Origin: Bugula neritina
Taxonomy: Eukaryota > Animalia > Bryozoa
DNA length: 64,000 nucleotides
Assembly: GCA_964035545.1 (NCBI GenBank)
Contig: OZ037770.1
Span: 2,884,662-2,948,661, forward strand
Direction of reading: 5' to 3'
How positions within the stretch are numbered: position 1 is the first letter of the stretch; every line of letters starts with the position of its first letter. The notes beneath the pieces were generated by a model. That model saw nothing but the letters and a program-made list of their open reading frames with translations. It searched no databases and had not been told where the DNA came from. The translations under genes and the position numbers were made by a program. This document shows, one piece after another, positions 22,468-51,224 of this stretch.

Positions 22468-23602
22468 GAAGCTGTTCTATATAAGATACCAGTATTTATA
22501 TACAGGACCTCCCACTCTGTGTGTTACTCATCTTCCTATTAACTAGACTCTAGTCTCCCTGTACAGAACTCAGACTACTCTCTGTACAGAACTCAGACTA
22601 CTCTCTCTACTATGACTCATCTCTAGAACATTCTGGTATTTTCTAGAAGCTACAGTCTCTCTGTTTCTATGCTCATGTTAATAATACACTCAGTTTACTC
22701 AGGTCAAGTCTATGACGTAGTGTTACAGTGACTCATAGTTCAAAGGTCATTTACCAGGTGTATTCCTGTATACAGTCTGTCTCAGAGGGTATATTGTGGT
22801 CTTTCTTTCTTCCTCTCCTTGTGAAATATCCAGCTCTAGTTTGTTAGTATATAAATGTTTCTTCTATAGTCAGAGTTTATTGGTTGTTTTTTCTCTCAAT
22901 TAAGTGGTCACAACTCCGGATTATCACTATAGACTCGCTATACATACATTTGTATACATTATGTTTGTATAAACTATATTTGTATATATTATATTTGTTT
23001 ATTTGATGATTGTATATTTTTTTGTTTGTGAAAACCACTTCACATCGCATTCAATAATGTGAATTCGATCATTTATATATTAGAACTTTTCACATTTTGC
23101 ATTCTTTATTTCACTATATGTTAAGCAGTAATGTGATTTAGTAGCAAATTTGTTTATTTATTACTGATTTCAATCAATTTTTGTTGAAAATTACTGTATA
23201 TTTTTCTGTAACCAATTGTTTATTTTATTGTAAATTTCTGCACATTCTATTGTAAATTGCTGTATATTTTGTATCATTTGTCATATTTGACAACAGGTTT
23301 TATTTACAATATTATACTTTTTCATTTATTCATTATTCCAGAATATATAAACTCAGAAACATATATTGACTATCATTTTCTCCCCCCCCTTATTTAATGC
23401 CCTATTCACTATTTTTATTGAAGAATATGCAAATTTAGAAACACATTTATTCTAGAGAATTCTTGCTTGAATATGCTCAGTACTAACTAGTTTTAATATA
23501 TAACTAAGGCTAGTTGTCATTGAAAGTTTGACTTTAATATTATTGGGAAACTTCATCACTACATAAGAGTAGAGAATATAAATCAGTGTAACTTCAGTAT
23601 AA

Positions 23603-23946
23603 GCCTAGGGCCACACGGCGCGTATTTTCGCATGCGAAAATTGAAATCACAAGTAGCAAAGGTGTCCACTGCGTGCGTTGAGAAAACATTCGCACTTGTC
23701 GCTCTGCATTTTCAACGCAAGTGCGAATCGTCTCTGTCGACGTCACCTAATTGGCTGGTAGTTTTTCGGCAAGCCCATTTTCTTTATTTTAGTGCTACAT
23801 TCCAGTAAATTGCGTTTTATTGAAAGCGAGTGCGATTTAAAAATGAAAGCTTTATTTATCACGCATCACTGACGCTACAGTGGACACTTTTGCTACTTGT
23901 GATTTCAATTTTCGCATGCGAAAATACGCACCGTTTGGCCCTAGGC
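23603..23946. mobile_element. PIF/Harbinger-type (Tourist-like) MITE
   Basis: ~70-bp TIR GCCTAGGGCCACACGG...CCGTTTGGCCCTAGGC with TAA TSD on both sides (23600-23602, 23947-23949). Confidence 0.88.
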
Positions 23947-24228
23947 TAATAGTCTATACATAGCGCTGAGACAGTCAACACACACATAAAATAAGATAAT
24001 TATCCAATCAACATCTACAATATGACTATCTCAGTATAACTGTTTCTCATTCAATTCTGACATTTCTGTTCTCTTCCTGTTTATTTTATCTCCTCTTCCT
24101 GTTTATTTTCTCTCCTCTTCCTGTTTATTTTCTCTCCTCTTTCTGTTTATTTTCTTCCCTTCTCCAAAGTCATTACATTATCTCACCTTGTCTCTAGATA
24201 TGGCTAAAGCAATACATGGTGACAATAC

Positions 24229-24580
24229 TGTAGTGAGTAGTGCAAGTACAAATACAGGAATCGCCCTCTCCCTACTCTTGGAATACTTAGACTCTTATGT
24301 AGCAACCAATTAGCAGCTCCGGAAGATATGCTTCCGATTCACGTGACACTTCCCGGGTTATTAACATTATATCACGTTGTTGTAAGCGGAGGCTTGTAGT
24401 AGTAACATGTGTTAGTAGTTGACTCTTGTATAGGATAATTTGATGTGATGTTTGGTTTATGCTTTATTGTGGATAATAAATATAATTACTCGACAGCTAC
24501 CTTAGTAATTGATAACAGAATAACCAGCTAACTATACGCAAGTAAATAACTCACGCTCAGTAATTGCACAAATTACTACA
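24229..24580 (+). repeat. 5' LTR of element 1
   Basis: Identical by eye to 29136-29487; TG...CA ends. Confidence 0.97.
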
Positions 24581-24581
24581 G

Positions 24582-24599
24582 TGGTGGCAGCGGTGGGAT
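24582..24599 (+). promoter_or_regulatory. Primer-binding site (tRNA-Leu)
   Basis: TGGTGGCAGCGGTGGGAT is complementary to the ...ATCCCACCGCTGCCA-CCA 3' end of animal tRNA-Leu and lies 1 nt after the LTR. Confidence 0.9.
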
Positions 24600-24615
24600 C
24601 TTGCGTATAGCAGTC

Positions 24616-25566
24616 ATGGCAGAAGACGGCACGGAGCTACCCATTCCACTGAATGAAGGTGAGAGAGATAATGTTGATATACCTATGGAACCAGTGGTGT
24701 TAGATGAAGAAGTGAGAATTCTTAAAGAGTATGGTGAAGACAGATACCGGATGAAGGCGCCCACCTTCGCAGGCGAAGAAGCAGTGGAGCAGTTTATCCA
24801 AATATTCCAAGATGTGATGGAGATTTCAGAGTGGCCGCCAAGGGTGGCGCTGCTCAAGCTCAGGATGGCGCTGACGGGCAAAGCTAAGCCGTACGGAGCG
24901 GGACCTGACATAGACGGAATCTTTGCTTCCCTGCGGGCCCGTTTTGGCATCTCTCCCATAGATGCGCGGGCCCGTCTACAGAGGATGCGGCGTGATCCTC
25001 ACACGTCACTAGAAGAGCACGCTGCCACGGTGTACCCACTAGCGCAGATTGCATTCCGCGATCTGCCTCCGGTACACCGTGAGAGGTATACTTATGATGC
25101 CTTCGTGCAGTCCATCAACGACTTGGGGCTCCACCATCAACTCCAAGCGAGGGGAGTCACCACAGTCGAAGATGCACTTGCGGTGGGAGAAGCCTACCTC
25201 TTGGCGACTCATATGCACCGCAACCGCGTGGCCTCCCGCCAGGTGACCACGGAGCACTCTACTGCTCACGCCGACTTAGACGCGGAACCCTCCGCGGTGG
25301 CTAATGTGAACCAGATGTCACTAGCGTCAAAAATCTCACAGATGACTGACATGCTAGATAAACTGGTCACCACATTAGCTTCCCCAAGCCAGGTAGATAC
25401 TGCCCGTGAGCCTAGCGGGCCGCAGGTACAATCACCAGGCATGGGGCACCACTTCTGCTGGGAATGCGGAAGGCCAGGACATTTCCAGAGAGACTGCCCT
25501 CAGCTCCCACAAGGGTTAAACTACCACGGCCCGCAGATGTTCCCACCTCCTGCGGGCCGTCTGTGA
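24616..25566 (+). CDS. gag: Gag (capsid + CCHC knuckle), element 1
   Basis: ATG at 24616; KAPTFAGEEAVEQFI; CWECGRPGHFQRDC zinc knuckle; colinear with element 2 gag. Confidence 0.92.
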   Translation: MAEDGTELPIPLNEGERDNVDIPMEPVVLDEEVRILKEYGEDRYRMKAPTFAGEEAVEQFIQIFQDVMEISEWPPRVALLKLRMALTGKAKPYGAGPDIDGIFASLRARFGISPIDARARLQRMRRDPHTSLEEHAATVYPLAQIAFRDLPPVHRERYTYDAFVQSINDLGLHHQLQARGVTTVEDALAVGEAYLLATHMHRNRVASRQVTTEHSTAHADLDAEPSAVANVNQMSLASKISQMTDMLDKLVTTLASPSQVDTAREPSGPQVQSPGMGHHFCWECGRPGHFQRDCPQLPQGLNYHGPQMFPPPAGRL

Positions 25567-27620
25567 ATCACCCAGGGAGGCCCGCGCGTCTGTCGCCCCG
25601 CTGGGCGCCGCGCGGAGATGCTGTGAAGTGGCGACCCCCGCGGCAAGTAGGCTCCAGCCACTCGCCACCTGGGTCCTCTACGCCACTCCGGCACCAACAC
25701 GGAACCGGCAGACGGTTGACCACAGAGCCTGCGAGGGAAACGGTACAGGCGCCGCAAGGCGTACCGCCCCAACCTCGGCAGCTGGTCAATAGTCGCCGCC
25801 AACCGTGGACCCCTCGACCCACAGCGAGGGAGGTGCAACCACGGCACACACAATTGCAGCCACACGGAAGTAGCTACTTCCTACCAGGAAAGCTAGCCGG
25901 CAAGCCTGCCAACTTCCTCCTGGACTCAGGCTGCACCACCAACCTCCTTAGCCGTCAGTTCTTTGACACCCTCAGCGCTAAGGTCAAGGACAGGTTGGCA
26001 CCGTATGAGGGGGATCATGGCACCCTGGCAGACGGGTCATGCATTCCCTTCTACGGCATTATTGAGCTAACTGGTTACGTCCGTAACCAGGCCATCCAAG
26101 AGACGTTTATCGTCGGGCAGCTCAACGAGGATGCTATCCTCGGGATGCCATTCTTACAACGACACGGTTGTCGCATCGATTTCAGTAAATCTGCGATGAT
26201 CATGGGCGACAAGGAGCTCGCTTGTGTCGATAAGTTTGGTCGTCCTTTAGCGGGAGCAGTGCAGGTAGTACGGAGCTGTACTATACCAGGCCACTCCCGG
26301 GCTACCGTCTGCTGCAAGGTAGACGGTGGCCAAACCTCTAAGTTGGGAGTTGTCGAAAGTACGCACTCGAGAGTCCAACTTGCCCATAGCTTTAGCCGGC
26401 TTACGGGACAAGGAGAGATCTCAGTGCAGTGTGTCAACCCCTTCTCAGAGACAGTAGACCTACCACCCAGATCCATGCTGGGTCGCTTCCATCCTGTCCA
26501 GGAGGAAGCCATTGGGCCGTCGTCGGGAGCTACGACGGAAGGTCCTCAGCAGAGCCCGTCTCGAGGGCGGAGGACCGTCCCAACCCACGCCTCCCCTTCT
26601 CCAGGGACGCGTGGCTGCACAGGCAACGGGAAGCGCCAGGCTATGGCTAGGTTGCCACATGGGTACAGTGAGGCGTTCAGCCACACAGACCACGGAGCCC
26701 GCCTAAATAGAGCAGGCTGCCGTGAGGTACCACGGGCGGCGAGGACCGCCCCTGCTCAGCTACTCCAACAGAGGGCTGACACGCCCCCGGAGGCTGCCCA
26801 GAGCCTCTGCGCCAAACCTGTATGGGCTGGTAACGTTAGGGAGCTGCCGAAGCTCCAGGAATGCCTTCCTGGGGTGGTAGCCGACGTGTACCGAGCGAAA
26901 CAGGAAGGGCGACGACCCAGTAGTACACAACGGCGACAGGGATGCGCCGAGTTACGGCTGTACTGTCAACGTTGGAGCTCTCTGCGGGTCGGGCCAGATG
27001 GTCTGCTAACCATGACCTTGGCCGCCAACAGCAGACAGCCAGCCAGGAAGAGGGTTGTCTGCCCAGTTGCCATCCGCCGGAAGTTGATACAAGACACCCA
27101 CGAGGAGACTCACGGAGGAGTCCAAGGGGTGGTCACCAAGCTACAACTCCGGTGGTACTGGCCTAACATGGAACGGGATATCCGACGCAGAGTGAGACGG
27201 TGCAAAGTCTGCCAGACCAACAAGCATAGCCGTCTCCCTGGTGAAGCGGGGCGGCAGACGCATTGTGCGAGAAGGTCTCGGCAGGCGGAGACTGTCAACC
27301 TGGCCGGAAACACCTCCATGACACGTCAGGAAGACTTGGCGAGGCGAGAAAGGCTACTTCCGTCCTTGAAAGTGCGCCCACCGCCCCCAACGTCAAGCCT
27401 GCCATCATCACCACTTCCGGAACCAGAAACAGGTCCGGAAGTGCAAAAACCCCCCGTGGGAGGGGCTCCGCAAGGAGATACCAACATAGGACCAGGACCA
27501 CACACTAGGCAACTTCCAGCGTGTCTCAGAGACTGTGTACGTGACCGCGGTATAAGCGGCAGTAACGAAAGTCTAGAGGCCTCGCATGAAAAAACAGGCA
27601 AAGAGCCGTGGGAGTTGTGA
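25464..27620 (+). CDS. pol: Internally deleted Pol: aspartic protease + remnants + integrase HHCC, no RT/RNase H/DDE core
   Basis: The FLLDSGCTTN protease is intact. Alignment to element 2 jumps from the pre-RT region (REVPRAARTAP) to the post-RH region (QLLQQRAD...), and from the IN start (TVNLAGNTSMT) to the IN tail (RQEDLARRER). Confidence 0.88.
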   Translation: MRKARTFPERLPSAPTRVKLPRPADVPTSCGPSVNHPGRPARLSPRWAPRGDAVKWRPPRQVGSSHSPPGSSTPLRHQHGTGRRLTTEPARETVQAPQGVPPQPRQLVNSRRQPWTPRPTAREVQPRHTQLQPHGSSYFLPGKLAGKPANFLLDSGCTTNLLSRQFFDTLSAKVKDRLAPYEGDHGTLADGSCIPFYGIIELTGYVRNQAIQETFIVGQLNEDAILGMPFLQRHGCRIDFSKSAMIMGDKELACVDKFGRPLAGAVQVVRSCTIPGHSRATVCCKVDGGQTSKLGVVESTHSRVQLAHSFSRLTGQGEISVQCVNPFSETVDLPPRSMLGRFHPVQEEAIGPSSGATTEGPQQSPSRGRRTVPTHASPSPGTRGCTGNGKRQAMARLPHGYSEAFSHTDHGARLNRAGCREVPRAARTAPAQLLQQRADTPPEAAQSLCAKPVWAGNVRELPKLQECLPGVVADVYRAKQEGRRPSSTQRRQGCAELRLYCQRWSSLRVGPDGLLTMTLAANSRQPARKRVVCPVAIRRKLIQDTHEETHGGVQGVVTKLQLRWYWPNMERDIRRRVRRCKVCQTNKHSRLPGEAGRQTHCARRSRQAETVNLAGNTSMTRQEDLARRERLLPSLKVRPPPPTSSLPSSPLPEPETGPEVQKPPVGGAPQGDTNIGPGPHTRQLPACLRDCVRDRGISGSNESLEASHEKTGKEPWEL
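25515..25580 (+). promoter_or_regulatory. -1 ribosomal frameshift signal (G_TTA_AAC + stem-loop/pseudoknot)
   Basis: Heptamer 25515-25521, 5-nt spacer, stem CGGCCCGCAG/CTGCGGGCCG. Pol is in the -1 frame of gag. The signal is conserved in element 2. Confidence 0.8.
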
Positions 27621-28078
27621 TCACCACAAAAATCTCAACTTTTGCCTCGGCGGAATCTCACACGAGATTCATCCGCTGGAAGTAAAAAGCCCTAGTCACG
27701 TTTCACAACCACGCTGTCCGGTCTTTTCCTATGTTGATGCAGTCGAGAGTAGACGTGCCAGTAAACAGTAATCATTTACCACTCTCATTCCAAAATGTCT
27801 TACTATTCTGGATCGAAGGGTGTTAATTATGTTTTTGGTACGATAACTAGACTGCATCAGTCAGCTTAGCTACACTAGCTAGCTGGAGATTCGATAATGA
27901 TAAACAGTGGTGGGAATACACGTCGACTTTGATTTTAAATAATCTGCCATAGCGAGTGTGTTCTCCATCAACTATTCATTAGCCTGAATCTCACGAGTGT
28001 AACTGAACAGAGTACCGGTCAGGCTGTACACGCCGACGGTGCCTCAGTGTATAATCTTTAACACTGCTACTCTTTCAG

Positions 28079-28845
28079 ATCACACTCGAGTGACCACCTC
28101 CCGGTCACGGGACCAGCCAACCTCTCTGTCTATGGAAGAAGAGCCTGTAATGGAGAATGGCATACCCGTAGTGCTCCGCCGACGACACCGTTGGGTGTCA
28201 CCCACGACAGAGAGGAGAATTGAAGAAGCCTGGGGACCCAGTGGACCACACCGAACCTGCCAGGTCTGCTTTGAGGAGTGCCCGTCACACCGCTCCCTGC
28301 GTTTACATGTAGACGCCCATTTCCTACTCCACTTCTGTCCCTGCGGGTTCCACGACGTCTACCCGTATCCCGTGACAGTACATAAGCTAAGCTGCTTCGC
28401 CGGAGAGAACCACACTGTTGATGAAGACAGTTTCCCCCTATACCTGGATGCCATCAAGCCAGTCATCAGGAAGGCTATCACCCTGGCCGCACTAACGTCA
28501 GGGTTTCACGTACTGCTACTATCTGCCCGCCATAAGTCCCCTATGGTTCAGGGCCCACCTCCTACCCCCGTCAACCCTAGCAACACCCCAGAAGTAGAAG
28601 AAACAACAATATCCCCTCTAACGGAGACCACTACAACCCCACCAAGGCCTAGCCAGCTGGCTAACGTAGAAGAGCGGCTTATGAGACTACAAGCCGAGTT
28701 CACACAACTTGCCCCTGACCTGCTGGATACGACGACAGGTCTATACCAGTTGAAGGACTCAGTGGGGCGACTGAAGAGGCGGCTACGGGCCCGACAGGCT
28801 CGACACAGAGCATGGTCGCTACAAGAATCAGAGTCCAACCAATGA
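28079..28845 (+). CDS. ORF3 exon 2 of element 1: C2H2 + C2HC zinc fingers, Pro-rich linker, coiled coil (spliced to gag leader 24616-24658; 269 aa)
   Basis: CQVC-x12-H-x3-H, CPC-x12-H-x3-C and C-terminal heptads. TCTTTCAG acceptor at 28077-28078. Homologue present in element 2. Confidence 0.85.
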
Positions 28846-29135
28846 GAATGCCTGGGGTAGGCACCTTCGTTGAGCGATACTCGTTTGGAATGTGACGAGC
28901 GCTCCGACATTGGCCCGCGTGCTGGTAAGCACCCTCTCTCTTAATAGCTGACTAGATGTGTGTGATCGATCACCCTGTTGTCTTCTAATGTAAACGTTGT
29001 CGTGCTCAACTATTTCTTTTCTTACTCTTTGTGGGTTTACTTATGTATGTTTTTCTTTTTGGATTATTGTATGGTTTTTCATTATGTTTTTTTATTGTGT
29101 TATCAGAAAGTAGGGCTTTCTGCTGGGGGGGACGG

Positions 29136-29487
29136 TGTAGTGAGTAGTGCAAGTACAAATACAGGAATCGCCCTCTCCCTACTCTTGGAATACTTAGACT
29201 CTTATGTAGCAACCAATTAGCAGCTCCGGAAGATATGCTTCCGATTCACGTGACACTTCCCGGGTTATTAACATTATATCACGTTGTTGTAAGCGGAGGC
29301 TTGTAGTAGTAACATGTGTTAGTAGTTGACTCTTGTATAGGATAATTTGATGTGATGTTTGGTTTATGCTTTATTGTGGATAATAAATATAATTACTCGA
29401 CAGCTACCTTAGTAATTGATAACAGAATAACCAGCTAACTATACGCAAGTAAATAACTCACGCTCAGTAATTGCACAAATTACTACA
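29136..29487 (+). repeat. 3' LTR of element 1
   Basis: Preceded by PPT GGGGGGGACGG (29125-29135) and followed by the ATAC TSD. Confidence 0.97.
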
Positions 29488-30659
29488 ATACCACTCACAT
29501 AGCTATAGCACACACCTACCATAGACTGGGTAGACTGTATCATAACACAGGTCAATATACACACTCAGTACACTGCTATAACATGGCCCTGGTACAGAGA
29601 GATAGGTGTAATACTGCTCATCTCCCTCTATATACAGCTGTGTTAGTCAGTTTCTCTCAGACTATGATCTCGTTGTCAGACTACAAACACGCTAAGGGTC
29701 TCCTACTACTCGCTCTCAAACATTCACCTACTGACTACTGTAAGGATACTCAGGCTGGTATCTGTCAATTCTTAGGATAGTGTTGTCTCCACTTACATCA
29801 GTACAGGAAGTGTTGGAAATATTTTATATGACGCCCTAAAATAACTTCAAATTGAAAACATAAATAAAAAATTAAAAAATGAAGTTATCCTCCTTTAACA
29901 AAGATAATTAAAATACAGCAAATAAAATAATTATTTAACAGATTACTGGAAATATAAAAAGTTGGTAAATTATTTTTAGTTTCCTGAAATAATTAAACTG
30001 TGAAAAAGTTTCAGTTTGAGCCAATGCAGATTAGGAGACTCAGTTGCATAGTATTTGCTTAGAAAATATCCAAGTAATATTTTAAAGTAGCACCCAACGT
30101 GTAAATGATATATTCCATTTATAAAAAACCATATTAATGCTGCAAGTTTCCATAAACCGCAGTCTCTTCTACTGGAGTTGTCGTTCTTTAAAAGTAGAGT
30201 GTATTTTCTGTTTCAGCCATTCATGCATAGTGACAGGGGGGTACTTAGAACGCCCCACTAGACATTCTATTAGTGTGGTCTGGTCTGGAGTAGCAAAGAA
30301 TGGGATAGAAACTCTGTCAGCCTCCTGCAGGTGCATGTCATCTGACACCAACACTCGGTGCTTCTGAAAAACATAAACAGTTTTCAAGGAACAAAGAAAA
30401 TAGTTCATGAAAATACTGCATTCTACAAATTTTAAGTCAAATTTGACTTTCTTCCATCAGAGTTTTTCTACAAAAATGCAACAAAGCAAAGCATTAACTA
30501 TATTCACAGCAAAAATATTATGTTTATTACAGAGACAAGGTTACCAGTTGAGTAGCTTTTCAATAAAGTAACATAACCTGGTAGAACCTGCTTGCTGTGC
30601 TTTTTGTAACTATCAACTACTTAGCGTGACATCACTAGTTAGTATGACATCACAAGTTA

Positions 30660-30985
30660 GCCTAGGGCCACACGGTGCGTATTTTCGCATGCGAAAATTG
30701 AAATCACAAGTAGCGTCAGTGATGCGTGATAAATAAAGCTTTCATTTTTAAATCGCACTCGCTTTCAATAAAACGCAACTTACTGGAATGTAGCACTAAA
30801 ATAAAGAAATTGGGCTCGCTGAATAACTACCAGCCAGTTAGGTGACGACGACAGAGACGATTTGCACTTGCGTTGAAAATGCTGAGCGACAAGTGCGAAG
30901 GTTTTCTCAACGCGCACAGTGGACACCTTTGCTACTTGTGATTTCAATTTTCGCATACGAAAATACGCACCGTGTGGCCCTAGGC
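30660..30985. mobile_element. PIF/Harbinger-type MITE, second copy (inverted relative to 23603-23946)
   Basis: Same TIRs; TTA TSD (30657-30659, 30986-30988). Inserted in an 18-bp minisatellite within the last dioxygenase intron. Confidence 0.88.
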
Positions 30986-31247
30986 TTAGTGTGACATCAC
31001 TAGTTAATGTGACATCACTAGTTAGTATGACATCACTAGTTAATGTGACATCACTAGTTAGTATGACATCACTAGTTAGTGTGACATCACTAGTTAGTAT
31101 GACATCACTAGTTAGTGTGACATCACTAGTTAGTGTGACATCACTAGTTAGTGTGACATCTCTAGTTAGTATGACATCACTAGTTAGTGTGACATCACTA
31201 GTTGGTATGACATCACTAGTTTGTGTGACATCACTAGTTAGTATGAC
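30986..31247. repeat. 18-bp minisatellite (RTGACATCACTAGTTAGT)n
   Basis: About 14 copies here, plus about 2 copies at 30620-30659 on the other side of the MITE. Confidence 0.95.
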
Positions 31248-33501
31248 GGAGCAAAGAGCATTTTTAATGCAAAGAAAAACCTAGTCTGGAGTAAAGTTTT
31301 CCTTGTTTAATTTCTCGATATAACACATCCCAGAACTCAGTCTATAGAATACAGTTGTATGGTAGATTTGATGTGTTTGTTTTCTCAATATAACACATTG
31401 TGGAACTTACATTAGCAACCAGAGTGTCTGACGTCCAGAACTGCATTACATCACCAATATTAACAATAATACCACCAGGGGGAGCTGTCACTGCCTCATA
31501 TTCTCCAGTGGATCTATTCATCACCTGGTATAATATAATACACAGAGACTACAAGCAGCGAAGATAACTTCTAAATGTTAGTAAATTAAACTAACAAATA
31601 TGATAGAATTCAGAGCTCATTGTGTAGAGGTCAGGCACAACTAACTCATACAAGTATTATGTAATATGAACCTCTAGCCCGGGGCTATCTTGAATCAGTA
31701 AAGTAACGGAGCCGTAGTCACTGTGCTCCCCACATCTAACTTGGCCAGGTTCTAAGTCTACATTCACCGAACAAGCAATCTTGTTAGCTCATCTGATTGG
31801 TTGAATAGGAAGTGATGTCACACTTGAAACTACATTCACACATGCAATATATTGTATACAATACCATAACTAATAGATGTAACTCTTATCCTAATACTTA
31901 GTATTCAAGGAAACATCTCAAGATTCCTACATATACATGATATACTATGTTGATGTTAATATTGTACTAAAATATGGTTTACTAAAGTAACGCTGTCTGT
32001 TCTATTATATACACAGAATATACAACTATACTGTTACTCTTAGTATCTGTGAATGTGTGTTGTACATGCAACCAGTAAAATATAGCCTAGGAATCTCACC
32101 TTTGTTGAGAGTGGCTGGGTAAAAGTTAACTCGAATAGCCGACTCAGTATGAGAGGAACCAAAGCTATGAGAATTTGCTATATAAGACGGGTCTTTCAGT
32201 CTTAGACCTAGGCCTATCAGCTTCATGAACTGCAGTGAGAGGGTAGACAGTCTCCCCCACCATTCCTTGAGAATTTTCATAGAATCTGGTATTTCCTAGA
32301 GAAAGTGTAAAATGTTAATAGCAAAGACTCACTCTTTACATTCTCAGTCTGGAATTTGTTAATTTCTAAAATAATGAAACGAAATGATAAAAACTTCAAA
32401 CAATATTATGATGGACAATATGTAGAAAAATTATAGATATTCATCGCAACACAAAGTGACTATGTCATACATGAAATATTTCAATTTACACTCATATTTG
32501 CACTAATGTTTAGTACACACTATACACTATACACTTGACAATGAAACCATTTTACACTATAAACTCACTGTTTCCGCCATTACTGGTCGAAAGTTAAAAG
32601 TTTCCTTGTAGTCCCCTGCCCTCCTATCAGTAGAGAGAGTTTCTCGTCCAACATCCACCCTCCCTGTGTTACTCATCAGTCCCTTTGTGTACAAGCACTT
32701 TTCACTCTCTCCCAAACCAAAGAATTATTTTACTTCGTTCATCAATGTGTCCATCTGAAAGCATGAAGCAGACAAAATAAAGTGCACTAAAACATTCAGA
32801 TTTAAGTTTTACCTGTACACATACACTACAGAGCACCTGGGAATACCTGTATATATAAACTGAACAGCACTTGCTGACACCTGCCAGCACTTCATAAAAT
32901 TGAAAGTGACTTCTGCAAGGCTGATAGAAATATGAACAAAACTCATAAATATTGACAATAAATACAGAGTTACATACTATATGACATTCTCTCTAATCTG
33001 CTTCATATAAACACCTACACACTACTTGTATGTTACCTCGCCTTGAGTTATTCCTGTGTTCACTAGACAGATAAATCCTACAGTCTTTAATGCTGCTATT
33101 ATGTCATCAGCCAGTGATATCTGTTCAGGAGTTGTCTTCCATAGCAGTGCTGCATCTCCTGGTATTGACTGTCCAGCAGTAAAGTCTATTACAGGCACAA
33201 TTGGCTTCTCCGTGGCACTATCTAAATATCAACAAAGGTAAATAAGCTAACTTGGTGGATGAGATACGAAATAAGTTGGCTGAACACAAACTTGAAACCT
33301 TTTCTAAAAAGTAACAAATACATGAATTAGAGAATTTGACTCTTGAAATTAAACAAGGTGATACTTTGCTTAGATACTTGCTTAGACCTAGTGATTAGTT
33401 GCTACCATTACGCAATAGGTATAATTGTCATGATGCCTAATGGCATTCCGCATTCATAATAATAATAATAATCAACATTATCATATTGGTAATGTGAATA
33501 T

Positions 33502-33806
33502 TGTTAAGATTTTCAGTTTTAGGGTTGATGTGCTATCCAGAGAGTCTATTTATTTACTATAGAACTGCACCAGGATAAGTCGAGTGAACGAGTATATTTT
33601 ACACACAACTATACATTATAAAAACGATACATTATTTCCAAACAAGTTACACATCTAATCTATTTCACACTCTAGCTTCGACTGAGTTAGCAGCGGGAAA
33701 CTACAATTGCTGCTAACTATCAACTACGCTAATTGGCTATCCATTGTTCCGGGTCAATTACGCGACCCTACATGTTGTGCTGCTGGTAGTTCCACGAACC
33801 ACCACA
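33502..33806 (-). repeat. 3' LTR of element 2
   Basis: Identical by eye to 40702-41006 (offset 7200). Confidence 0.97.
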
Positions 33807-34093
33807 CCGCCCCCACCAGCAGAAAGCCATCTTTCTGATATATATATATAAAAACATTCAATAGTAATTGCATACATCAGTGGACAAAATAATACATAAT
33901 ATACAGGAAGAGACATAATAATAGGCAGAGTCATTATAACGATCCGTTGCATACAATTGGCCAGCTGTAGATAGACGAGGAATACTAGCTAGCTGTAGTA
34001 TTAGACAAGGAATAACCTGTCTAGCAGTTAAACATTTGCACGATCTTGGTTCCTCACAAGATGTGAAGTTGCGGAGTATTCTGGGTAGCCTAA

Positions 34094-34881
34094 CTAGAGT
34101 CCTTGTTGGGCACGCCGGTGCTTGGCTTGGCATGTACGCAGTTTCCGTTTCATACGGCATACGGATCCCTTTAGCTGGAAGAGTCCGGTTGTAGTGTTAA
34201 GTAGATCTGGTGCCAGCTGGGTGAATTCTTCTTGTAATCGCAGGAGGCGTTCTTCTACTGTGGCTAGGCGGACTGGGTCGGGGGACGGTGTCCGTCTGTG
34301 GCGCAAGGGTGGACTGGGGGACCTGGTTCGTCTCTTCGCCGGGGTAGGGGAGATCTCTCCTTCTTCTGGATATGTAGTTTCCTCGGGGGTGTATGTAATT
34401 TGAGGGCGGTCAGACACCAACGGGGATTGTTGGCGGGCGTTGTCTAACACACGTTGGAACCCCGAGGACAGAACGGCTAATAGCATGGCCTTCTTCACCA
34501 GAGGTCGTATAAGTGTGAGGAACTCCGGGTATAGCTTAGCGTCGACCACGTAGTTTTCTCCAGGGAAACAGCCCGCCGCTCTGTGTCTGGTGACGGGGTA
34601 GGGATACACATCATTGTACCCGCAGGGGCAGAATGTCAGTAGGAGATGAGCATTGACGTGTAGTTTAAGGGAGCGGTGAGAGGCGCAATCTTCACCACAG
34701 ATCTGGCATCTCGTCCGTCCTCTGGACCCCCAGGCTGTTTCTATTTCTTCTTCTGTTTGTGGAGACACCCACCGCCAACGGCGGCGTAGTGGCTCAGGCC
34801 GGTCACCACTAGCATACTCCTCTGGATACGGAGCGGGAAGTGTTCTATCCCGTACCCTGGTTGTAGCGGGTCGAGTGTAAT
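34094..34881 (-). CDS. ORF3 exon 2 of element 2: C2H2 + C2HC zinc fingers, RSPSP linker, coiled coil (spliced to gag leader 40670-40628; 276 aa)
   Basis: CQIC-x12-H-x3-H, CPC-x12-H-x4-C, LATVEERLLRLQEEFTQLAPDLL heptads. CTTTTTCAG acceptor at 34883-34882. Confidence 0.85.
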
Positions 34882-35424
34882 CTGAAAAAGTTTCAACAGT
34901 GTTAATACAGTACACTGCTGTGTTGTCAGCTTGAACAGCTTGGCAACTCCTAATTCAGTTACCTCGTAGAGATTTATGGTAGTGAATAGTCAGATAGAAC
35001 ACGTATTGCAATGAGATTATAAAAATCTCTAAGTCAAACTGAGTTCTTACTACGGTATTTCACTAACCTATCTCCAGCTCGATTGACTCAGTGAGTCAGA
35101 GCTGAGCGATGCAATCTAGTTTCGTATTAAGATATAGTTAACTCACCCCACGATCTGTTGTCGTAAGACATACTGAATGTGTGAAATGGTTTGAACTACT
35201 GCTTAGAAACACGTCTACTCCTGACTGCATCAGCGTATGAAAAGATCGAGCAACGTGGTTGGGGTGCGTGATTAAGACTTTGTGCACCCGGCGGATGAAT
35301 TTTATTTCTATTTCCGCCGATGCAAAAGTTGATATTTCCGTGGTGTTGACAACTCCCACATTTGCTCGATTCTTTTCTCGTACGGTTTTCCCCTAGACTT
35401 TCATGCGTGCCGCTTTTAACGCAG

Positions 35425-38400
35425 TCACATACGAAGTCCTTCAATTATGCGGGGGGTTGCCTCGTACGCTGTCCCCTTTCTAGGGGGGGGTGACACGCTT
35501 GCCGGTTCGTTAGTAGGGGCCTCTAATGGCGTCTCTACTTCGCCGTCAGCAGTCACCTCTTCTTGTTCTCCGGATGGAGCCCCTCCCTCCGTGGGGGTTT
35601 GCACTTCCGGAACCGGCTCGGTTTCTGGAAGTGATGGAATTAGACTTGGCGGTGGCGGACACGCTTCTGTTGACAAAAGCTGCCGCTCCTCTCTCACCAA
35701 GTTTTCTTCCCGCGGTATGACCACTTCGTATTCAGGTCCATGCCGCCGTCGCCCGCGCGTTGTTGTCTGCCTCCTGGGCTCTAACAACGGGGGGGCTTCT
35801 CCCACTCCGCCGGGGCTAGCCCAATACGGTTTCAAGCGAGACTCATTCTGGATAGATACCTGTCCTGAGCGCTCAATCTTGTACGTATGATTAGGCATAG
35901 CCTCGACAACCACGTAGGGGCCCACGAACTTAGGCTTCAGCTTATCAGCCTGTCCGCGGCGCCTACGGTAATTGACCATCCACACCTTATCTCCCCTCTG
36001 ATAGAGGGGTGGTTCATCGGAATCTTCGTGCCGCACCTTCCACTGCTGTTGGCGCAGTATATCGTGTGCGGCCTTCATCCGTTCCACTAGTTCACTGGCA
36101 TACTCGTGGACTGAGTTATCTTGCTCTGGAACGTGATAGGTGAGATGGTCGGGGACACGAGTCTCTCTCCCGAGCATCAAGAGGTTTGGGGTCTCGCCAG
36201 TACTGGTGTGTGGGGTGCTACGGTATGCACGCATGACTTGCGGCAACACCGTATCCCATTCCTCTTGACCTCGTCCAAGGAGGAGACTCCGGAGTGCATC
36301 ACCTAGCATCCGGTTGTTGCGCTCCACCACCCCGTTACCTTGAGGGTGGTAGGGGGTGGTCCTGCTCTGATTTACTCCCCAGAGGCGGCAAAGGTCGCTC
36401 ATCAGTTGAGACTGGAATTGAGCGCCTTGATCAGAGTGTATCTGTTCGGGGAGCCCAAAATAACAGAATACATGTTGGTCTAGCGCCCTGGCCACTGTTG
36501 GGGCTGATGCATCTGGGATAGCCAGAGCATCCGCCCACCTAGTAAAGTGGTCGGTTAGTACTAGGATCCAATTATTGCCTCTGGGGGTCAGGGGCATGGG
36601 TCCGACCAGGTCTACAGCGACTACTTGCCAGGGCCTACCAGCGTATAGCCTCCGCCGTCCTGCTTCACCAGGGGGGCGGCTATGCTTACTGGCCTGGCAG
36701 ATCTCACACTGTTTGACTCTGAGCCGGACATCACGCTCCATTTGTGGCCAATACCACCGAAGTCGTAATTTGGACATCACTCGCTTGACCCCTGCGTGGG
36801 CCTGTTTGTGAGTATCCCAAATCAACTCACGGCGGATGGCTGTGGGGCAGACCACCCTCTTCCTTTCCGGGTGTCTGCCGCTGGCAGCTAGAGAGATGGT
36901 TAGTAACCCATCCTGCCCGATCCGCAGCGAGTCCCAACGCTGACAGTATAGCCGGAACTCGGCGCATCCCTGTCGTATGCGTTCCTCGCTGGGTCGTCGC
37001 CCTTCCCTTTTGGCCTGGTATATGTCTGCCACGACTCCAGGCAGCTCTTCTTGGAGCTTCTTCAGCTCTCGAACATTACCGGCCAGTACAGGGTTGGCGC
37101 GGAGGTTTTGTACATCCTCCGGGGACTCATCAACTCTTTGCCTGAGTTGACCTTGATCCCAGTCAAACGGTGCTCCGTGATGAGCCAGCGTCTCCAACTC
37201 GCATCGTGGGGGACCTCCATCCCTCCTCTCGATGTTGAGACACTGTTTGCAACCTCCGTCAGATCGACGACTCAACCCATCCGCATTGCTGTGTCTCTTG
37301 CCCGGTCGATGTTCGATCCGGTATGAGAATTCAGCTAGGATTTCGAGCCACCTGGCGACCTGACTAGAGGGCTCTGCTCTCCTGCACAACCAGATCAGCG
37401 AGGCATGATCCGTACGCAGCCGGAACTTCCTGCCATATAGGTATGGTCTGAAGTGCTTCACTGACTTGATTACTGCCAGCAGCTCCTTGCGGGTAGTGCA
37501 GTAATTTCGTTCAGCGGGTGAGAGAGACTTGCTGTAGTAGGCTACTACTACCTCTCGGCCTTCCTGCACTTGTGACAGCACAGCGCCAACATTCTGGTCA
37601 CTGGCGTCCGTGTCTAGGATGTACTCCAGAGTGGGGTCTGGGTAGGCCAAGATGGGCGCCGTTAGTAGGCAGCCCTTGAGGCGGTCGAACGCTTCTTGTT
37701 CGACTGGAGTCCACTGCCACGTCACTCCCTTTGCGGTGAGCCGGTTTAACGGCTGGGCTATGCCCGCAAAGTCTGGTATGTATTGCCTGTAATACCCTAC
37801 CAGCCCCAAGAAAGCCCGGAGTCCGGTCAAGTCTTGGGGGGTGACCCAGTCTTCTACTGCCCGTACCTTTTCGGGATCCGTTGCCACGCCGTTTCGACCG
37901 ACAACGTGCCCCAGGTACTTGACCTCCGGCTGCAATAGAGCGCACTTGGAAGGTTTGAGCTTAAGACCGGCACCTCGGAGTCTCTCGAAAACCTCCTGCA
38001 GACGACTGACATGTGTCTCAAAGTCTGGAGAGATTACGATGACATCATCGAGGTAGACCAGCAGTGTCTTCCAATGGAGTCCGCTAAGGACTTGTTCCAT
38101 CAGCCTCTGGAAGGTGGCTGGGGCGGAGGTTAACCCGAAGGGCAGCACCTTCCACTTCCACAAACCGTCCCGTGTGATAAACGCCGCTTTCTCTTGGGCG
38201 TCGGGACTCAGAGGAACCTGCCAATAGCCGCTTAGCAAGTCTAACGTACTGAAGTACTTGCTGCCGGCTAGGGCGTCCAATGACTCGTCAATACGAGGTA
38301 GAGGGTAGGCGTCCTGTATGGTTACGCTATTGAGTTTGCGGTAGTCCACACAGAACCGCCAACTGCCGTCTTTTTTCCGGACCAGTACGACTGGCGAGCT

Positions 38401-39828
38401 CCACGCACTATGGGCGGGCTCTATCAGTCCCCGGTCCAGAAGATCCCGTACTTGTCGGCTAACCTCCTTCTCTTTCTCCGGCCCCAGCCTGCGCGTGGGC
38501 TGCCGGACAGGGACTGTCCCTGCAGTCAGCGGTATTTCGTGTCTGACAATTCCAGTCAGTCCCACGTCATGCTCTCCGCTGCTGAACACATCACCGTAGT
38601 CGCGTAGTAACTTAGCCATAGCTTGGCGTTCCCTGTTACTCGCGCAGCCGCCACTGGCTGTTTCATATAACTCCCGGAGATGTGTTGGGACTGCCCCTCG
38701 TCCCTGAATAGGGTGTCGAGGGAGTGCCTCTGTCGCATCATCCAGCGACGGGCCTACGTCTCCCTCCTGAACAGAGTGAAAACGGCCCAGCATCGACCCA
38801 GCCGGGAGCTTGATAGGCTCGGTAAAGGGGTTGACGCACTGCACTAAGATCTCCCCTTGCTCAGTCAGCTGATTCAGACTGCTGGCAAGTTGGATCTTTT
38901 CGTGCGCGCTTTCAACCACCCCGAGTCCAGAGATCCGGCTACTATTCACCCTGCAGTGAATGGTAGCCCGGGAGCGGCCTGGTATGGTACGGTTGCGTAC
39001 CACTTGCACACCTCCCACTAAAGGGCGGCCGAACTTGTCGACGCAGGCGAGTTCCCGCCCGGACATCATCATTGCAGATCTGCTAAAATCTATGTGACAT
39101 CCGTGCCGTTTAAGGAACGGCATCCCGAGGATAGCATCCTCCTTGAGCTGACTGACGATGAACGTCTCTTGGATCGTTTGATCGCGGACTCGTCCCGTCA
39201 GCTCAATTATACCATAGAAGGGAAGGCACGACCCGTCAGCTAGGGTGCCGTATTCCCCTTCGTATGCTTCCATCTCGCCCCTGACCCTAGCACTGAGGGT
39301 GTCGAAGAGTTGGCGGCTTAAGAGGTTTGTGGTACAGCCCGAATCAATGAGAAAAGTAACAGCTTTGCCTTCCAGTTTACCGGGCAAGAAATAGCTGTTC
39401 CCATGGGGCTGCACCTGAACTCTCCCTTCAGGCCTTACTCTCGCAGGGAGTACCTCCCTCGCTTTGGGTCGCGAAGGAGGTCTCTTGGGGCGGTGATAGG
39501 TAGGCCTCGGGGGTGCCGAGGCTAGATTCTCAGCTACCTTTGTGTGCTCCCATCCAGATTCTTGGACTTGTAGTCCTGTGAATCTGTTGTGAAGGGGCAT
39601 AGAAAAGGCAGCCGCGGGGCGAAGCCCCTTGCTGGTCCGTCGTGGCTGTTGCCACTGTTGGTTGCCAGTACGCGGTACCCGTCTGGGTGACCTGCGTTTC
39701 TTCTTCCCTGGAGGTTTCATCGTCGGCCCGCGGAAGGTGGGAACATCTGCGGGCCGCGGTAGTTTAACCCCTGATTTAGGAAGGGACAATATCGGCGGAA
39801 ATGTCCTTGGTTTCCGCATTCCCAGCAA
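35425..39828 (-). CDS. pol: Pol polyprotein (protease, reverse transcriptase, RNase H, integrase)
   Basis: LIDSGC, RFCVDYRKLN, LPFGL, YLDD, TDAS, HHCC, DLVGP, SDQG, VERNN, and a GPY-like motif (FVGPY). Domain order is that of Ty3/Gypsy. Confidence 0.97.
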   Translation of the reverse strand: MLGMRKPRTFPPILSLPKSGVKLPRPADVPTFRGPTMKPPGKKKRRSPRRVPRTGNQQWQQPRRTSKGLRPAAAFSMPLHNRFTGLQVQESGWEHTKVAENLASAPPRPTYHRPKRPPSRPKAREVLPARVRPEGRVQVQPHGNSYFLPGKLEGKAVTFLIDSGCTTNLLSRQLFDTLSARVRGEMEAYEGEYGTLADGSCLPFYGIIELTGRVRDQTIQETFIVSQLKEDAILGMPFLKRHGCHIDFSRSAMMMSGRELACVDKFGRPLVGGVQVVRNRTIPGRSRATIHCRVNSSRISGLGVVESAHEKIQLASSLNQLTEQGEILVQCVNPFTEPIKLPAGSMLGRFHSVQEGDVGPSLDDATEALPRHPIQGRGAVPTHLRELYETASGGCASNRERQAMAKLLRDYGDVFSSGEHDVGLTGIVRHEIPLTAGTVPVRQPTRRLGPEKEKEVSRQVRDLLDRGLIEPAHSAWSSPVVLVRKKDGSWRFCVDYRKLNSVTIQDAYPLPRIDESLDALAGSKYFSTLDLLSGYWQVPLSPDAQEKAAFITRDGLWKWKVLPFGLTSAPATFQRLMEQVLSGLHWKTLLVYLDDVIVISPDFETHVSRLQEVFERLRGAGLKLKPSKCALLQPEVKYLGHVVGRNGVATDPEKVRAVEDWVTPQDLTGLRAFLGLVGYYRQYIPDFAGIAQPLNRLTAKGVTWQWTPVEQEAFDRLKGCLLTAPILAYPDPTLEYILDTDASDQNVGAVLSQVQEGREVVVAYYSKSLSPAERNYCTTRKELLAVIKSVKHFRPYLYGRKFRLRTDHASLIWLCRRAEPSSQVARWLEILAEFSYRIEHRPGKRHSNADGLSRRSDGGCKQCLNIERRDGGPPRCELETLAHHGAPFDWDQGQLRQRVDESPEDVQNLRANPVLAGNVRELKKLQEELPGVVADIYQAKREGRRPSEERIRQGCAEFRLYCQRWDSLRIGQDGLLTISLAASGRHPERKRVVCPTAIRRELIWDTHKQAHAGVKRVMSKLRLRWYWPQMERDVRLRVKQCEICQASKHSRPPGEAGRRRLYAGRPWQVVAVDLVGPMPLTPRGNNWILVLTDHFTRWADALAIPDASAPTVARALDQHVFCYFGLPEQIHSDQGAQFQSQLMSDLCRLWGVNQSRTTPYHPQGNGVVERNNRMLGDALRSLLLGRGQEEWDTVLPQVMRAYRSTPHTSTGETPNLLMLGRETRVPDHLTYHVPEQDNSVHEYASELVERMKAAHDILRQQQWKVRHEDSDEPPLYQRGDKVWMVNYRRRRGQADKLKPKFVGPYVVVEAMPNHTYKIERSGQVSIQNESRLKPYWASPGGVGEAPPLLEPRRQTTTRGRRRHGPEYEVVIPREENLVREERQLLSTEACPPPPSLIPSLPETEPVPEVQTPTEGGAPSGEQEEVTADGEVETPLEAPTNEPASVSPPPRKGTAYEATPRIIEGLRM

Positions 39829-40670
39829 AAACTGACTGTTTCTCCCTGTGGCGGCGCCGATGGCCGCATGGGCTCAGGGGCGGTACTCACTGGGTTTTGT
39901 GGTGTCAGTGTTGCTATCAGCTTGGCTAGCATGTCCGTCAGTTGAGTGACTTTTGATGCCGTCGCCAACTGGGACACGGCAGCCGCGGCGGGGGTTTCCT
40001 CCCCTTGTCCCGCGGCCGCGTCTGCGCGGTCTATCTCCACTTGGCGGGAGCTTCCGCGGCTTTTATGCATTTGATTAGCTAGGAGGTAAGCTTCCCCCTC
40101 AGTCAGAGCATCTTCAACGGTGGTGACTCCCCTAGCTAGAAACTGGTGGTGGAGACCCAGATCGTCGACAGATGCTATGAAAGCGTCGAGGGTGTACCTC
40201 TCGCGGTTGACTGGGGGCAAGTCGCTGTACGCGATCTGTGCCAGCTTCATGACCGCGGCGGCATGCTCCCGCAGCGGGGTGCGGGGGTCACGCCGCAACC
40301 TCTGCAATCGGGCCCTGGCATCTGTAGCAGAGAGGCCAAAGCGGGCCCGCAGAGAAGCAAAGATATTATCAATGTCTACGCCCAGCCCATAGGGCTTGGC
40401 TTTGTCCATCAATGCCATTCTAAGCTTCAGCAAGGCCACCCTAGGGGGCCACTGAGCGACGTCCATTACGTCGCTAAACTCTTGGATAAATTGTTCCACC
40501 TCCTCTTCACCCGTGAAGGTGGGCGCCTTTAACCTGTAGCGGTCCTCAGCTAGTTCTCGCGGAACCCTTCGCTCTTCTACTACATGGTTAACAGGCATTG
40601 TCTCTACAGCATTGTCTCTACGCTCACCTTCGATTGCCGGTGGTTGAGTTCCAGCATTTTCAGTCTCCAT
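39717..40670 (-). CDS. gag: Gag (capsid + CCHC knuckle), element 2
   Basis: 317 aa; CWECGNQGHFRRYC. Overlaps pol, with a GTTAAAC slippery site at 39768-39762. Confidence 0.94.
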   Translation of the reverse strand: METENAGTQPPAIEGERRDNAVETMPVNHVVEERRVPRELAEDRYRLKAPTFTGEEEVEQFIQEFSDVMDVAQWPPRVALLKLRMALMDKAKPYGLGVDIDNIFASLRARFGLSATDARARLQRLRRDPRTPLREHAAAVMKLAQIAYSDLPPVNRERYTLDAFIASVDDLGLHHQFLARGVTTVEDALTEGEAYLLANQMHKSRGSSRQVEIDRADAAAGQGEETPAAAAVSQLATASKVTQLTDMLAKLIATLTPQNPVSTAPEPMRPSAPPQGETVSFCWECGNQGHFRRYCPFLNQGLNYRGPQMFPPSAGRR

Positions 40671-40682
40671 CTTGGATGCACT

Positions 40683-40700
40683 ATCCCACCGCTGCCACCA
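40683..40700 (-). promoter_or_regulatory. Primer-binding site (tRNA-Leu)
   Basis: Same 18-mer as in element 1. Confidence 0.9.
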
Positions 40701-40701
40701 C

Positions 40702-41006
40702 TGTTAAGATTTTCAGTTTTAGGGTTGATGTGCTATCCAGAGAGTCTATTTATTTACTATAGAACTGCACCAGGATAAGTCGAGTGAACGAGTATATTTT
40801 ACACACAACTATACATTATAAAAACGATACATTATTTCCAAACAAGTTACACATCTAATCTATTTCACACTCTAGCTTCGACTGAGTTAGCAGCGGGAAA
40901 CTACAATTGCTGCTAACTATCAACTACGCTAATTGGCTATCCATTGTTCCGGGTCAATTACGCGACCCTACATGTTGTGCTGCTGGTAGTTCCACGAACC
41001 ACCACA
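40702..41006 (-). repeat. 5' LTR of element 2
   Basis: TGTGGT...TTAACA on the minus strand. Confidence 0.97.
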
Positions 41007-46994: not shown

Positions 46995-47007
46995 GTCAGG
47001 ATGAGGG

Positions 47008-47845: not shown

Positions 47846-48191
47846 TTTGCACTCATTAATTCCATACTTTTCAAAATCAGCCACTACTGCTGCTGCCACT
47901 ACCACTAGTAGTTTGACTGCTATAACTGCTGCTGCTGCTACTGAAACTGTTTTGTAAATATAATGATCTTATCATCTTGAATAAGATGTTAATATATGAT
48001 AATAATGATGTTGATATTCACAGAATTATTACACTGACCAACCAGAGTGGAGGAAGAATGGTTATGATAAGACTCACTGTGGCAGATTCCACCAATCAGA
48101 TTCACCGAGTAAACCTTCGAGAAATCCGGTAAGTTTTATTTTTATTTTACTACATACAGTAAAAGTAAGAGTTATCTCCTCCGTACTTTAG

Positions 48192-51200: not shown

Positions 51201-51224
51201 TTAACTAGTAGTAATAACAGTAAT

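Follow-up and report, generated by a model that had tools for sequence, protein, structure and literature searches.

The window analysed here, a stretch of 64,000 nucleotides from the bryozoan Bugula neritina, contains two young Ty3/gypsy (Metaviridae) elements, A and B, which show the hallmarks of the group, namely LTRs, a primer-binding site, a polypurine tract and a target duplication, and whose LTR pairs are 100% identical within each element. Element A is bounded by a 5' LTR of 352 nt (24229..24580, +) and a 3' LTR (29136..29487, +; 352/352 identity) with the polypurine tract 5' of it, and is flanked by a 4-nt target duplication (24225-24228 / 29488-29491). Its primer-binding site (24582..24599, +), which we take to be of the tRNA-Leu type, has the same sequence as that of B. 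The gag gene of A (24616..25566, +) encodes a zf-CCHC motif (E 8e-6), and the pol frame (25416..27620, +) is in the -1 frame relative to gag. A -1 frameshift signal consisting of a slippery heptamer and a hairpin is predicted at 25515..25559 (+), and both heptamer and stem are common to A and B (~-22 kcal/mol). A previous sequence-only reading described A as a copy that had lost RT and integrase. Indeed, RT, RNase H and the integrase catalytic core are gone via two in-frame deletions; the protease and the integrase zinc-binding domain have been kept. Element B lies on the opposite strand, with a 5' LTR of 305 nt (40702..41006, -), a 3' LTR (33502..33806, -; 305/305 identity) preceded by the polypurine tract, a 4-nt target duplication (41007-41010 / 33498-33501), a primer-binding site (40683..40700, -) and gag (39717..40670, -). 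Its pol gene (35425..39873, -) has Pfam matches to protease, RT, RNase H and integrase in the order PR-RT-RH-IN (positions 164-253, 498-657, 721-849 and 1010-1177) and to an SH3-like domain, and the frame is broken near the 3' end in this copy. The LTRs of A and B, formerly called unrelated, are very diverged but not entirely unrelated, as indicated by a global alignment z of 4.1 and by CCAAT, TATA-like and AATAAA boxes at like offsets.

Both elements carry a third gene, ORF3. The ORF3 exon of A (28079..28845, +) comprises a finger module (~28156-28548), a Pro/Ser linker, a coil (28657-28809) and a basic tail, and that of B (34094..34881, -) is composed of the same parts (finger module 34807-34415, linker, coil 34267-34112, basic tail). 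Starting from the gag ATGs at 24616 (+) and 40670 (-), a predicted splice donor GAAG|GTGAG is placed 43 nt, i.e. 14 codons plus one nucleotide, into gag in both elements (donor 1 of A, 24655..24663, +, exon end 24658, boundary 24658/24659; donor 1 of B, 40623..40631, -, exon end 40628, boundary 40628/40627). The first 43 nt of each gag gene would serve as the first coding exon of ORF3. The donor 9-mer is identical at 9/9 positions between A and B; for the preceding gag bases the figure is 12/39 and for the following ones 5/15. The acceptors TTTCAG|AT at 28078/28079 (A) and 34882/34881 (B) enter ORF3 at codon position 2, and phase arithmetic places the gag donor and the ORF3 acceptor in phase, giving predicted joined proteins of 269 aa (A) and 276 aa (B). 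The coordinates, the 43-nt leader, the in-phase join and the protein lengths put forward earlier all hold. That reading did not include a second donor, which follows an ATG mini-exon of its own and is present in both elements 259/265 nt upstream of the acceptor. In A the second start exon (27795..27819, +) consists of ATG + 8 codons + 1 nt, followed by donor 2; in B an exon of the same make-up (35147..35171, -) is followed by a canonical donor, G|GTGAGT, compared with which A's copy is weaker.

Two natural joined forms use the ORF3 acceptor. In the database protein P0023, residues 1-14 match the Gag start of A at 12/14 positions, residue 15 is the predicted junction Asp, and ORF3 follows; P0023 is a single contiguous ORF on a 5320-nt contig, and the join of gag leader and ORF3 is known here from the protein alone. 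Moreover, a joint in the public run X2 excises 27820-28078 exactly, with GT..AG ends and a depth of 843, and pairs the predicted ORF3 acceptor with donor 2; its short side has 28 letters, it carries the flag 'between: not known', and the record of the run does not give its type. The gag-donor junction was absent among the joints listed (15 of 23 for A, 15 of 50 for B). Among the 27 listed homologs with the exon-start motif, 24 have [FL]-S or L-L immediately ahead of it, as expected from a read-through pyrimidine-AG acceptor; the others are P0023 and two homologs that are off position. Taken together, the sequence signals make it very likely that the third gene obtains its start codon by splicing, and we consider a spliced accessory gene to be highly probable.

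ORF3 is under purifying selection, as judged from the coding sequences of A and B. Its pN/pS is 0.41 (CI 0.33-0.50; synonymous sites saturated), which is not near 1, and that of the coil is 0.14. The protein contains the two finger patterns described before, together with the basic patch and the coil. In finger 1 (C-x2-C-x12-H-x3-H) the ligands are at least 90% conserved in 65 rows and the helix occupies residues 44-55 of the model; finger 2, of the C-x-C type, is atypical, and the pair is surrounded by additional helices. The model of the finger module is confident (pLDDT 96) and resembles tandem C2H2 fingers. At E <= 0.01, 5-7 of the 65 members match Pfam C2H2; the window protein falls below the cut-off, and its finger module reaches the Pfam cut-off for no family. 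Foldseek returned nothing for the module at E <= 0.001, the best Z in the fold search is 3.8, and the ESM Atlas gave C2H2 leads only, all sub-0.9. The full-length model is weak (pLDDT 63) and has no Foldseek match, and the homodimer prediction, with a score of 0.05, speaks neither for nor against a dimer. Of 40 aligned rows, 30 extend into the basic tail, which in these has a median of 8 K+R. No class-1 nuclear export-signal pattern is conserved outside the folded helices, and the helical export-signal patterns of the coil arise trivially from its heptads. Sequence and models support an architecture of the nucleic-acid-binding type.

The small introns between donor 2 and the acceptor (A, 27820..28078, +; B, 34882..35146, -) contain a long stem each (27886-27992 and 35074-34969), and that of A ends with a branch-like motif and the acceptor. 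Over ~260 nt they are 69% identical between A and B, compared with 61% for the 3' UTR and 59% for the ORF3 exon. The folding z is -4.0 (A) and -2.85 (B), in a region where other pol windows likewise fold at z -3 to -5. In this comparison of two sequences, 27 base pairs are exactly common to both introns, 3 of them changed on both sides (null mean 4.9, maximum 27 in 300). Rfam has no match within either intron. The intron thus appears to be conserved and foldable alike in A and B, like a candidate response element; it could also silence splicing, act as a packaging signal or be the target of a host factor.

On the observed base of the two elements, the in-phase splice signals, the selection, the two joined forms and the conserved foldable intron, we tentatively propose, as the best explanation, a CERV/Rev-like switch, for which we see a reasonable chance, somewhat short of even: ORF3 made from spliced RNA would bind to the structured intron that lies just ahead of its own acceptor, so that unspliced genomic RNA would be spared from splicing and exported. 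Early LTR transcripts would be spliced from gag codon 14 or from the mini-exon to the acceptor, yielding ORF3 protein, which would enter the nucleus via its basic patches. The fingers and/or the Arg-rich tail would then bind the intron stem-loop, which would be kept only in unspliced RNA, and the coil would multimerise. Unspliced RNA would build up and serve for packaging and for the synthesis of Gag and frameshifted Pol. In this scheme, element A would be a non-autonomous copy that still provides the factor in trans. Against such an export switch are the likeness of the fingers to DNA-binding Kruppel fingers and the lack of a conserved class-1 export-signal pattern outside the folded helices. 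In addition, 28 relatives carry the module in frame with Pol, and if Pol were its only source, it could not initiate export.

The likeness to Kruppel fingers fits a DNA-binding transactivator similar to foamy-virus Tas, whose C2H2 module would act on the LTR or on an internal promoter near the pol end, the mini-exon being the first exon of the internal-promoter transcript and the acidic N-terminus recruiting co-activators. This is a possible but rather doubtful role. The best six matches of the family profile in the PDB are DNA-binding Kruppel fingers (E 4e-8 to 3e-5), and the fold search points weakly to the same class (Z 3.0-3.7, rmsd 2.6-4 over ~50 residues). Acidic-hydrophobic 30-mers occur upstream of the fingers in 8/26 fused and 6/18 stand-alone relatives, and downstream in 1 and 1; they also occur in 7/52 Pol linkers, and with this background the enrichment is modest. 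The Gag leader carries an acidic net charge (-4 and -3), and a separate ATG mini-exon is compatible with an internal promoter as outlined for foamy viruses in the available part of PMC12789967. However, the LTRs are barely alignable, yet the module is 57% identical, and the base pairing kept in the conserved intron points to RNA.

Chromoviruses carry a chromodomain on the Pol C-terminus. By analogy, the module could be an integrase-side accessory with a role in chromatin tethering, in target choice or in keeping the new insertion from being silenced; it would ancestrally have sat on the Pol C-terminus and would now be supplied in trans. We regard this as unlikely. Fingers and a further tail lie in frame behind integrase in 28 of 120 Pol relatives (0/120 in reversed controls), and the fused forms are scattered on the RT tree around B, whose Pol nests among metagenome Pol at 63-80% identity (named proteins, <=54%). 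Judging from these sequences, the finger module has long belonged to this gypsy clade and is often in frame with Pol. The phrase 'in place of env', used in the sequence-only reading, is therefore correct for position only, and the module is not an env replacement. Against an integrase accessory, the stand-alone P0157 aligns full-length, from residue 1 onward, to an internal Met of the fused P0218 (34%), and the tail may thus be its own gene even where it is in frame with Pol; a spliced message would uncouple the module from the particle, and A, which is without a catalytic integrase, has retained it. In the search for ORF3 loci, none of 246 pattern matches in metagenome contigs and none of 74 in viral contigs proved to be one, and RT in viral contigs gave 0/2. 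A search for longer homologs scored 0/7989 candidates; it was uninformative because P0086 and the known fused Pols escaped it too. A captured-host-gene origin is not supported: of 10 distant homologs examined one has an organism name, a Watersipora subatra protein whose place in the tree is among element-like modules.

Translation of ORF3 without the gag splice, from an internal Met or by re-initiation after Pol, is improbable, as is a decaying remnant with incidental splice signals. A Met is found 15-25 residues upstream of the fingers in A and many relatives, none of 8 distant loci has a donor in the first gag codons, the mini-exon form is at the N-terminus of 0 homologs among 318 proteins compared, and the RNA data examined contain no read across either junction. 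Run X1 yielded 20 and 7 thin contigs, none across either junction; given its small share and thin cover, the missing junctions there carry no evidential weight. However, the first Met of the B ORF3 exon does not occur before exon residue 131, and a spliced-on start is therefore needed there. The donor is conserved in phase between A and B, which extends its conservation to this pair and not to the distant loci, the predicted sites are used by P0023 and the X2 joint, and selection is strong. An Env-like or fusogenic infectivity protein, suggested by a location after pol and before the 3' LTR and by a splice layout like that of errantivirus env, is largely excluded and most improbable, since ORF3 has a zinc-finger fold, no match to viral structure models at E <= 0.001 and, as stated earlier, no clear transmembrane segment (best 19-residue hydropathy 1.4-1.5, below transmembrane strength).

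Spliced regulators have long been regarded as a mark of complex retroviruses. To our knowledge, Rev, Rex, Rem and Rec are without C2H2 fingers, which ORF3 has, and the RNA binding and export that define the comparison are only proposed for ORF3. In the available part of PMC12789967, these proteins are described with response elements and a leucine-rich export signal, in Retroviridae with env. The closest precedent is CERV of the Caenorhabditis elegans element Cer1, the product of a spliced mRNA. This protein shares the Gag N-terminus, combines a leucine zipper with a Cys finger, and is needed for the export of genomic RNA (PMC10309623, in part). Like CERV, ORF3 belongs to a Ty3/gypsy-type LTR element and would, through a predicted splice, begin with the Gag N-terminus, and it likewise pairs a leucine-heptad coil with Cys-type fingers; the nuclear regulator role shown for CERV (PMC10309623, available sections) is only proposed for ORF3. 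CERV is a protein of 517 aa from 5 exons in which a C4-type loop occurs alongside a G-protein-like domain, and the available text of PMC10309623 reports no homologs beyond nematodes. In contrast, ORF3 has ~270 aa, lies 3' of pol, takes up 14 Gag residues only and carries tandem C2H2-type fingers and a C-terminal coil. It is set apart from the CERV family proper by half the length and by models consisting of fingers, helices and coil without a G-like domain, as against the H, M and G domains of CERV described there; the two were compared by description, without alignment, and no homology is claimed. Thus, the sequence-only view of a 'complex' LTR retrotransposon whose regulator is spliced and starts in gag stands as regards a real, selected, non-Env gene, but the idea had already been realised in Cer1 CERV (PMC10309623, as far as available). 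For this zinc-finger protein family, no description was found in the literature covered (Repbase, GyDB, most subscription journals and supplements were outside its scope). CERV being the one gypsy example found there, ORF3 would be a second, unrelated solution in young elements. The candidate protein adjoins its candidate 260-nt RNA target, and the question is therefore directly testable with a reporter.

Moreover, in-frame and split states within one clade illustrate a way in which a Pol extension can give rise to an accessory gene. On a wider and quite speculative view, a large gypsy clade of aquatic animals may have independently evolved a Rev/RRE-like circuit of C2H2 fingers, in which the regulator was first an in-frame Pol tail and was split off in this family behind a structured intron doubling as response element, with two alternative start exons; the bryozoan Watersipora subatra would retain a two-module copy as a gene. 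ORF3 resembles foamy-virus Tas, a regulatory gene that follows the structural genes and has an internal promoter (PMC12789967, in part), in its position and in the mini-exon as a putative second internal entry point, but neither its sequence nor its fold finds a counterpart among the viral models at the threshold given above. Non-env ORF3s, typically from spliced messages, are also known from LTR elements of bdelloid rotifers, where they are esterases, DEDDy exonucleases or membrane proteins (PMC5408684, available part). The bryozoan gene is likewise a non-envelope ORF3 in an invertebrate LTR retrotransposon but encodes zinc fingers, and in the available text of PMC5408684 the words 'zinc' and 'finger' occur 0 times. 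Finally, the MDG1 group of Drosophila, an env-less gypsy lineage, has an accessory gene too, sORF2, which is described in the accessible part of its preprint as a small membrane fusogen upstream of gag (bioRxiv 10.1101/2025.03.14.642691), whereas ORF3 is a 3' zinc-finger gene that is predicted to be spliced.

The two Ty3/gypsy elements of the window, A (24229-29487, (+)) and B (41006-33502, (-)), are oriented toward each other. Each is flanked by a target duplication of 4 nt and has a polypurine tract; the 18-nt primer site, which we take to be of the tRNA-Leu type, is identical in the two. Since the LTR pairs are identical (352/352 in A and 305/305 in B) and the target duplications are present, the insertions are very young. 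In B, pol follows the gypsy order (protease, RT, RNase H, integrase), and two in-frame deletions have removed from A its RT, its RNase H and the core of its integrase. The Gag-Pol overlap is in the -1 frame, and A and B share its slippery heptamer and hairpin. The pol frame of A stays open across its internal deletions (26760 and 27243-27323 (+)), and coverage by the public sequencing run X2 is deep over all 30 bins of A; A possibly belongs to a multi-copy, non-autonomous family. Moreover, a frame at the end of pol that is separate from the pol frame in A and B alike (27608-27770 (+) and 35360-35198 (-); DNA 75% identical) shows a conserved CxxC-x-HH-x5-C pattern.

The sequence-only reading had joined donor 1 (GAAG/GTGAG, after 14 gag codons and 1 nt) to an acceptor (TTTCAG/AT) in front of the third gene, ORF3, and on re-reading of A and B the sites, phases and protein lengths of 269 and 276 aa were exact. 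The donor 9-mer is identical in both elements amid flanking identity of just 12/39 and 5/15, and it is among the 2 (A) and 3 (B) G/GTRAG sites of the sense strands. The ORF3 exons share 52% identity. The selection check proposed earlier gave, for the A/B pair, a pN/pS of 0.41 (CI 0.33-0.50), well under 1, with pN 0.32 and pS 0.77 at saturated synonymous sites; the ratio is 0.14 in the ORF3 coil and 0.34 in gag. Judged by its sequence, ORF3 is a genuine gene. Of 779 candidates from a word-indexed search, 72 proved to be homologs, all unnamed; a profile search across 1.84 billion representatives gave 115 hits (E <= 0.001), and no Pfam family reached the cut-off.

The finger region of ORF3, the module (B residues 25-155), was modelled with a pLDDT of 95.7 from a 65-row alignment. 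The model starts with a helix, continues with finger 1 (C-x2-C-x12-H-x3-H) and finger 2 (C-x-C-x12-H-x3/4-C or H), and closes with one strand and three helices. Beyond the module, ORF3 has a Pro/Ser linker, then a coil and finally an Arg-rich tail. The whole module matched nothing at E <= 0.001 in Foldseek, and its best structural comparison reached Z 3.8.

Several observations indicate that the acceptor is in use. Protein P0023 (261 aa, encoded by one uninterrupted ORF of a 5320-nt contig) matches the Gag start of A at 12/14 residues, has the predicted junction Asp at position 15 and continues as ORF3; it is probably a retrocopy of spliced RNA or a transcript contig. In X2, which looks like DNA (contigs totalling 309 Mb, longest 59 kb), a joint on A excises 27820-28078 between GT..AG ends and has a depth of 843 (short side 28 letters; flagged 'between: not known'); among the 15 of 23 joints listed for A, 12 of the other 14 have depths of 77-129, and the gag-donor junction is absent from the joints listed for X2. 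Furthermore, [FL]-S or L-L directly precedes the exon-start motif in 24 of the 27 homologs printed with it, suggesting from protein data that the acceptor was read through, and B has no Met ahead of the fingers. A junction was found in none of the 20 and 7 contigs, all thin, of X1, the sole RNA run. A donor in the first gag codons was present in 0/8 relative loci, and the gag-leader splice has been shown for the A/B family only.

The X2 joint begins at a second donor, overlooked in the sequence-only reading, which in A and B follows an ATG, 8 codons and 1 nt. As this mini-exon and the gag exon end in the same phase, either start is open to ORF3; the mini-exon form occurs in 0/318 of the proteins compared. 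The small intron from donor 2 to the acceptor (259 nt in A, 265 nt in B) is 69% identical between the elements, compared with 61% for the 3' UTR, 59% for the ORF3 exon and 52% for the LTR, and its many frame-breaking gaps argue that it is non-coding. Its folding z is -4.0 in A (0/200 shuffles as good) and -2.85 in B (2/200), and some pol windows fold equally well. In this comparison of two sequences only, 27 pairs are common exactly and 49 to within 2 nt, and in 3 both bases differ; among 300 controls with random substitutions the mean was 4.9 shared pairs and the maximum 27. In both elements the branch-like motif is part of a short self-complementary stretch (28040-28065 (+) and 34920-34894 (-); paired in the B fold) that could reduce splicing.

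Because a probably spliced, gag-initiated, basic and coil-bearing ORF3 adjoins a conserved structured element retained only in unspliced RNA, we tentatively favour a switch resembling Rev or CERV, the spliced regulator of Cer1. ORF3 would act via this element, kept by unspliced RNA only. We know of no Rev-type protein with C2H2 fingers.

A somewhat less probable role is that of a transactivator. The fingers look like those of DNA binders, the family profile matching Kruppel-type PDB fingers (best E 4e-8), and in relatives acidic stretches lie N-terminal of the fingers (upstream in 8/26 fused and 6/18 stand-alone relatives, downstream in 1 and 1; background 7/52). The mini-exon also recalls the internal promoter described for foamy viruses (PMC12789967). 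In a sister group, four proteins (P0100, P0107, P0109 and P0150) have an acidic leucine motif conserved N-terminal of the fingers, which may serve activation or act as an export signal.

It is rather unlikely that the module is an integrase-side accessory, a role that best accounts for the in-frame relatives.

The module itself occurs across the clade. Among the best 120 of 7783 RT/RNase H relatives, a refined profile detected the module in frame behind integrase in 28 (E 2e-31 to 8e-16; reversed controls 0/120), namely in 28/52 with a tail of at least 300 aa and in 0/44 with a shorter one; the other 24 of the 120 are without a full integrase core. Of 28 loci retrieved by integrase, 3 have a clear and 3 a weak downstream module, and since L001 matches P0237, the locus and Pol sets are not independent. 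In a sister gypsy group with very long Pol frames (L004, L006, L010 and L011; 2078-2168 aa), L004 and L006 have the same PBS and only L006 has a weak finger match (E 4e-5). In an RT tree (FastTree, 130 rows) the fused forms are dispersed around B. The first residue of the stand-alone P0157 aligns with an internal Met of the fused P0218, so even an in-frame tail may possess a start of its own. Ten distant homologs were looked up, and the one with a named organism is from the bryozoan Watersipora subatra. An NCBI protein of this species, P0086/P0191 (596/644 aa, on a 66-Mb sequence), carries the finger module twice, ends in a coil-like tail and is a candidate for a domesticated copy.

Errantivirus env lies between pol and the 3' LTR in a spliced layout; an Env identity for ORF3 is excluded by its fingers and by the absence of a membrane segment on hydropathy analysis. 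Full-text literature searches turned up no account of the finger family. Precedents exist for the concept of a spliced regulator in an LTR element (CERV; PMC10309623) and for non-env ORF3s (rotifer LTR elements; PMC5408684); further sources compared were PMC12789967, PMC13524379, PMC8556966, PMC8220671 and bioRxiv 10.1101/2025.03.14.642691.

Other features surround the elements. A single ORF of 1353 aa at 18406-22467 (+), with a nucleotidyltransferase-like N-terminus (DUF294, E 5e-6) and many TPR repeats (period 132 nt), looks like a host innate-immune-type gene. A MITE-like short element with terminal inverted ends flanks A on each side (about 23600-23947 and 30661-30988; 95% alike, opposite orientation). 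Just downstream of B (32500-33200 (-)), canonical splice sites mark short exons of the host that resemble, by eye, a 2-oxoglutarate oxygenase gene. Satellite arrays occur at 46853-47989 (period 31 nt), 51038-52643 (16/19 nt), from 53617 (35 nt) and at 60060-60742 (24 nt).
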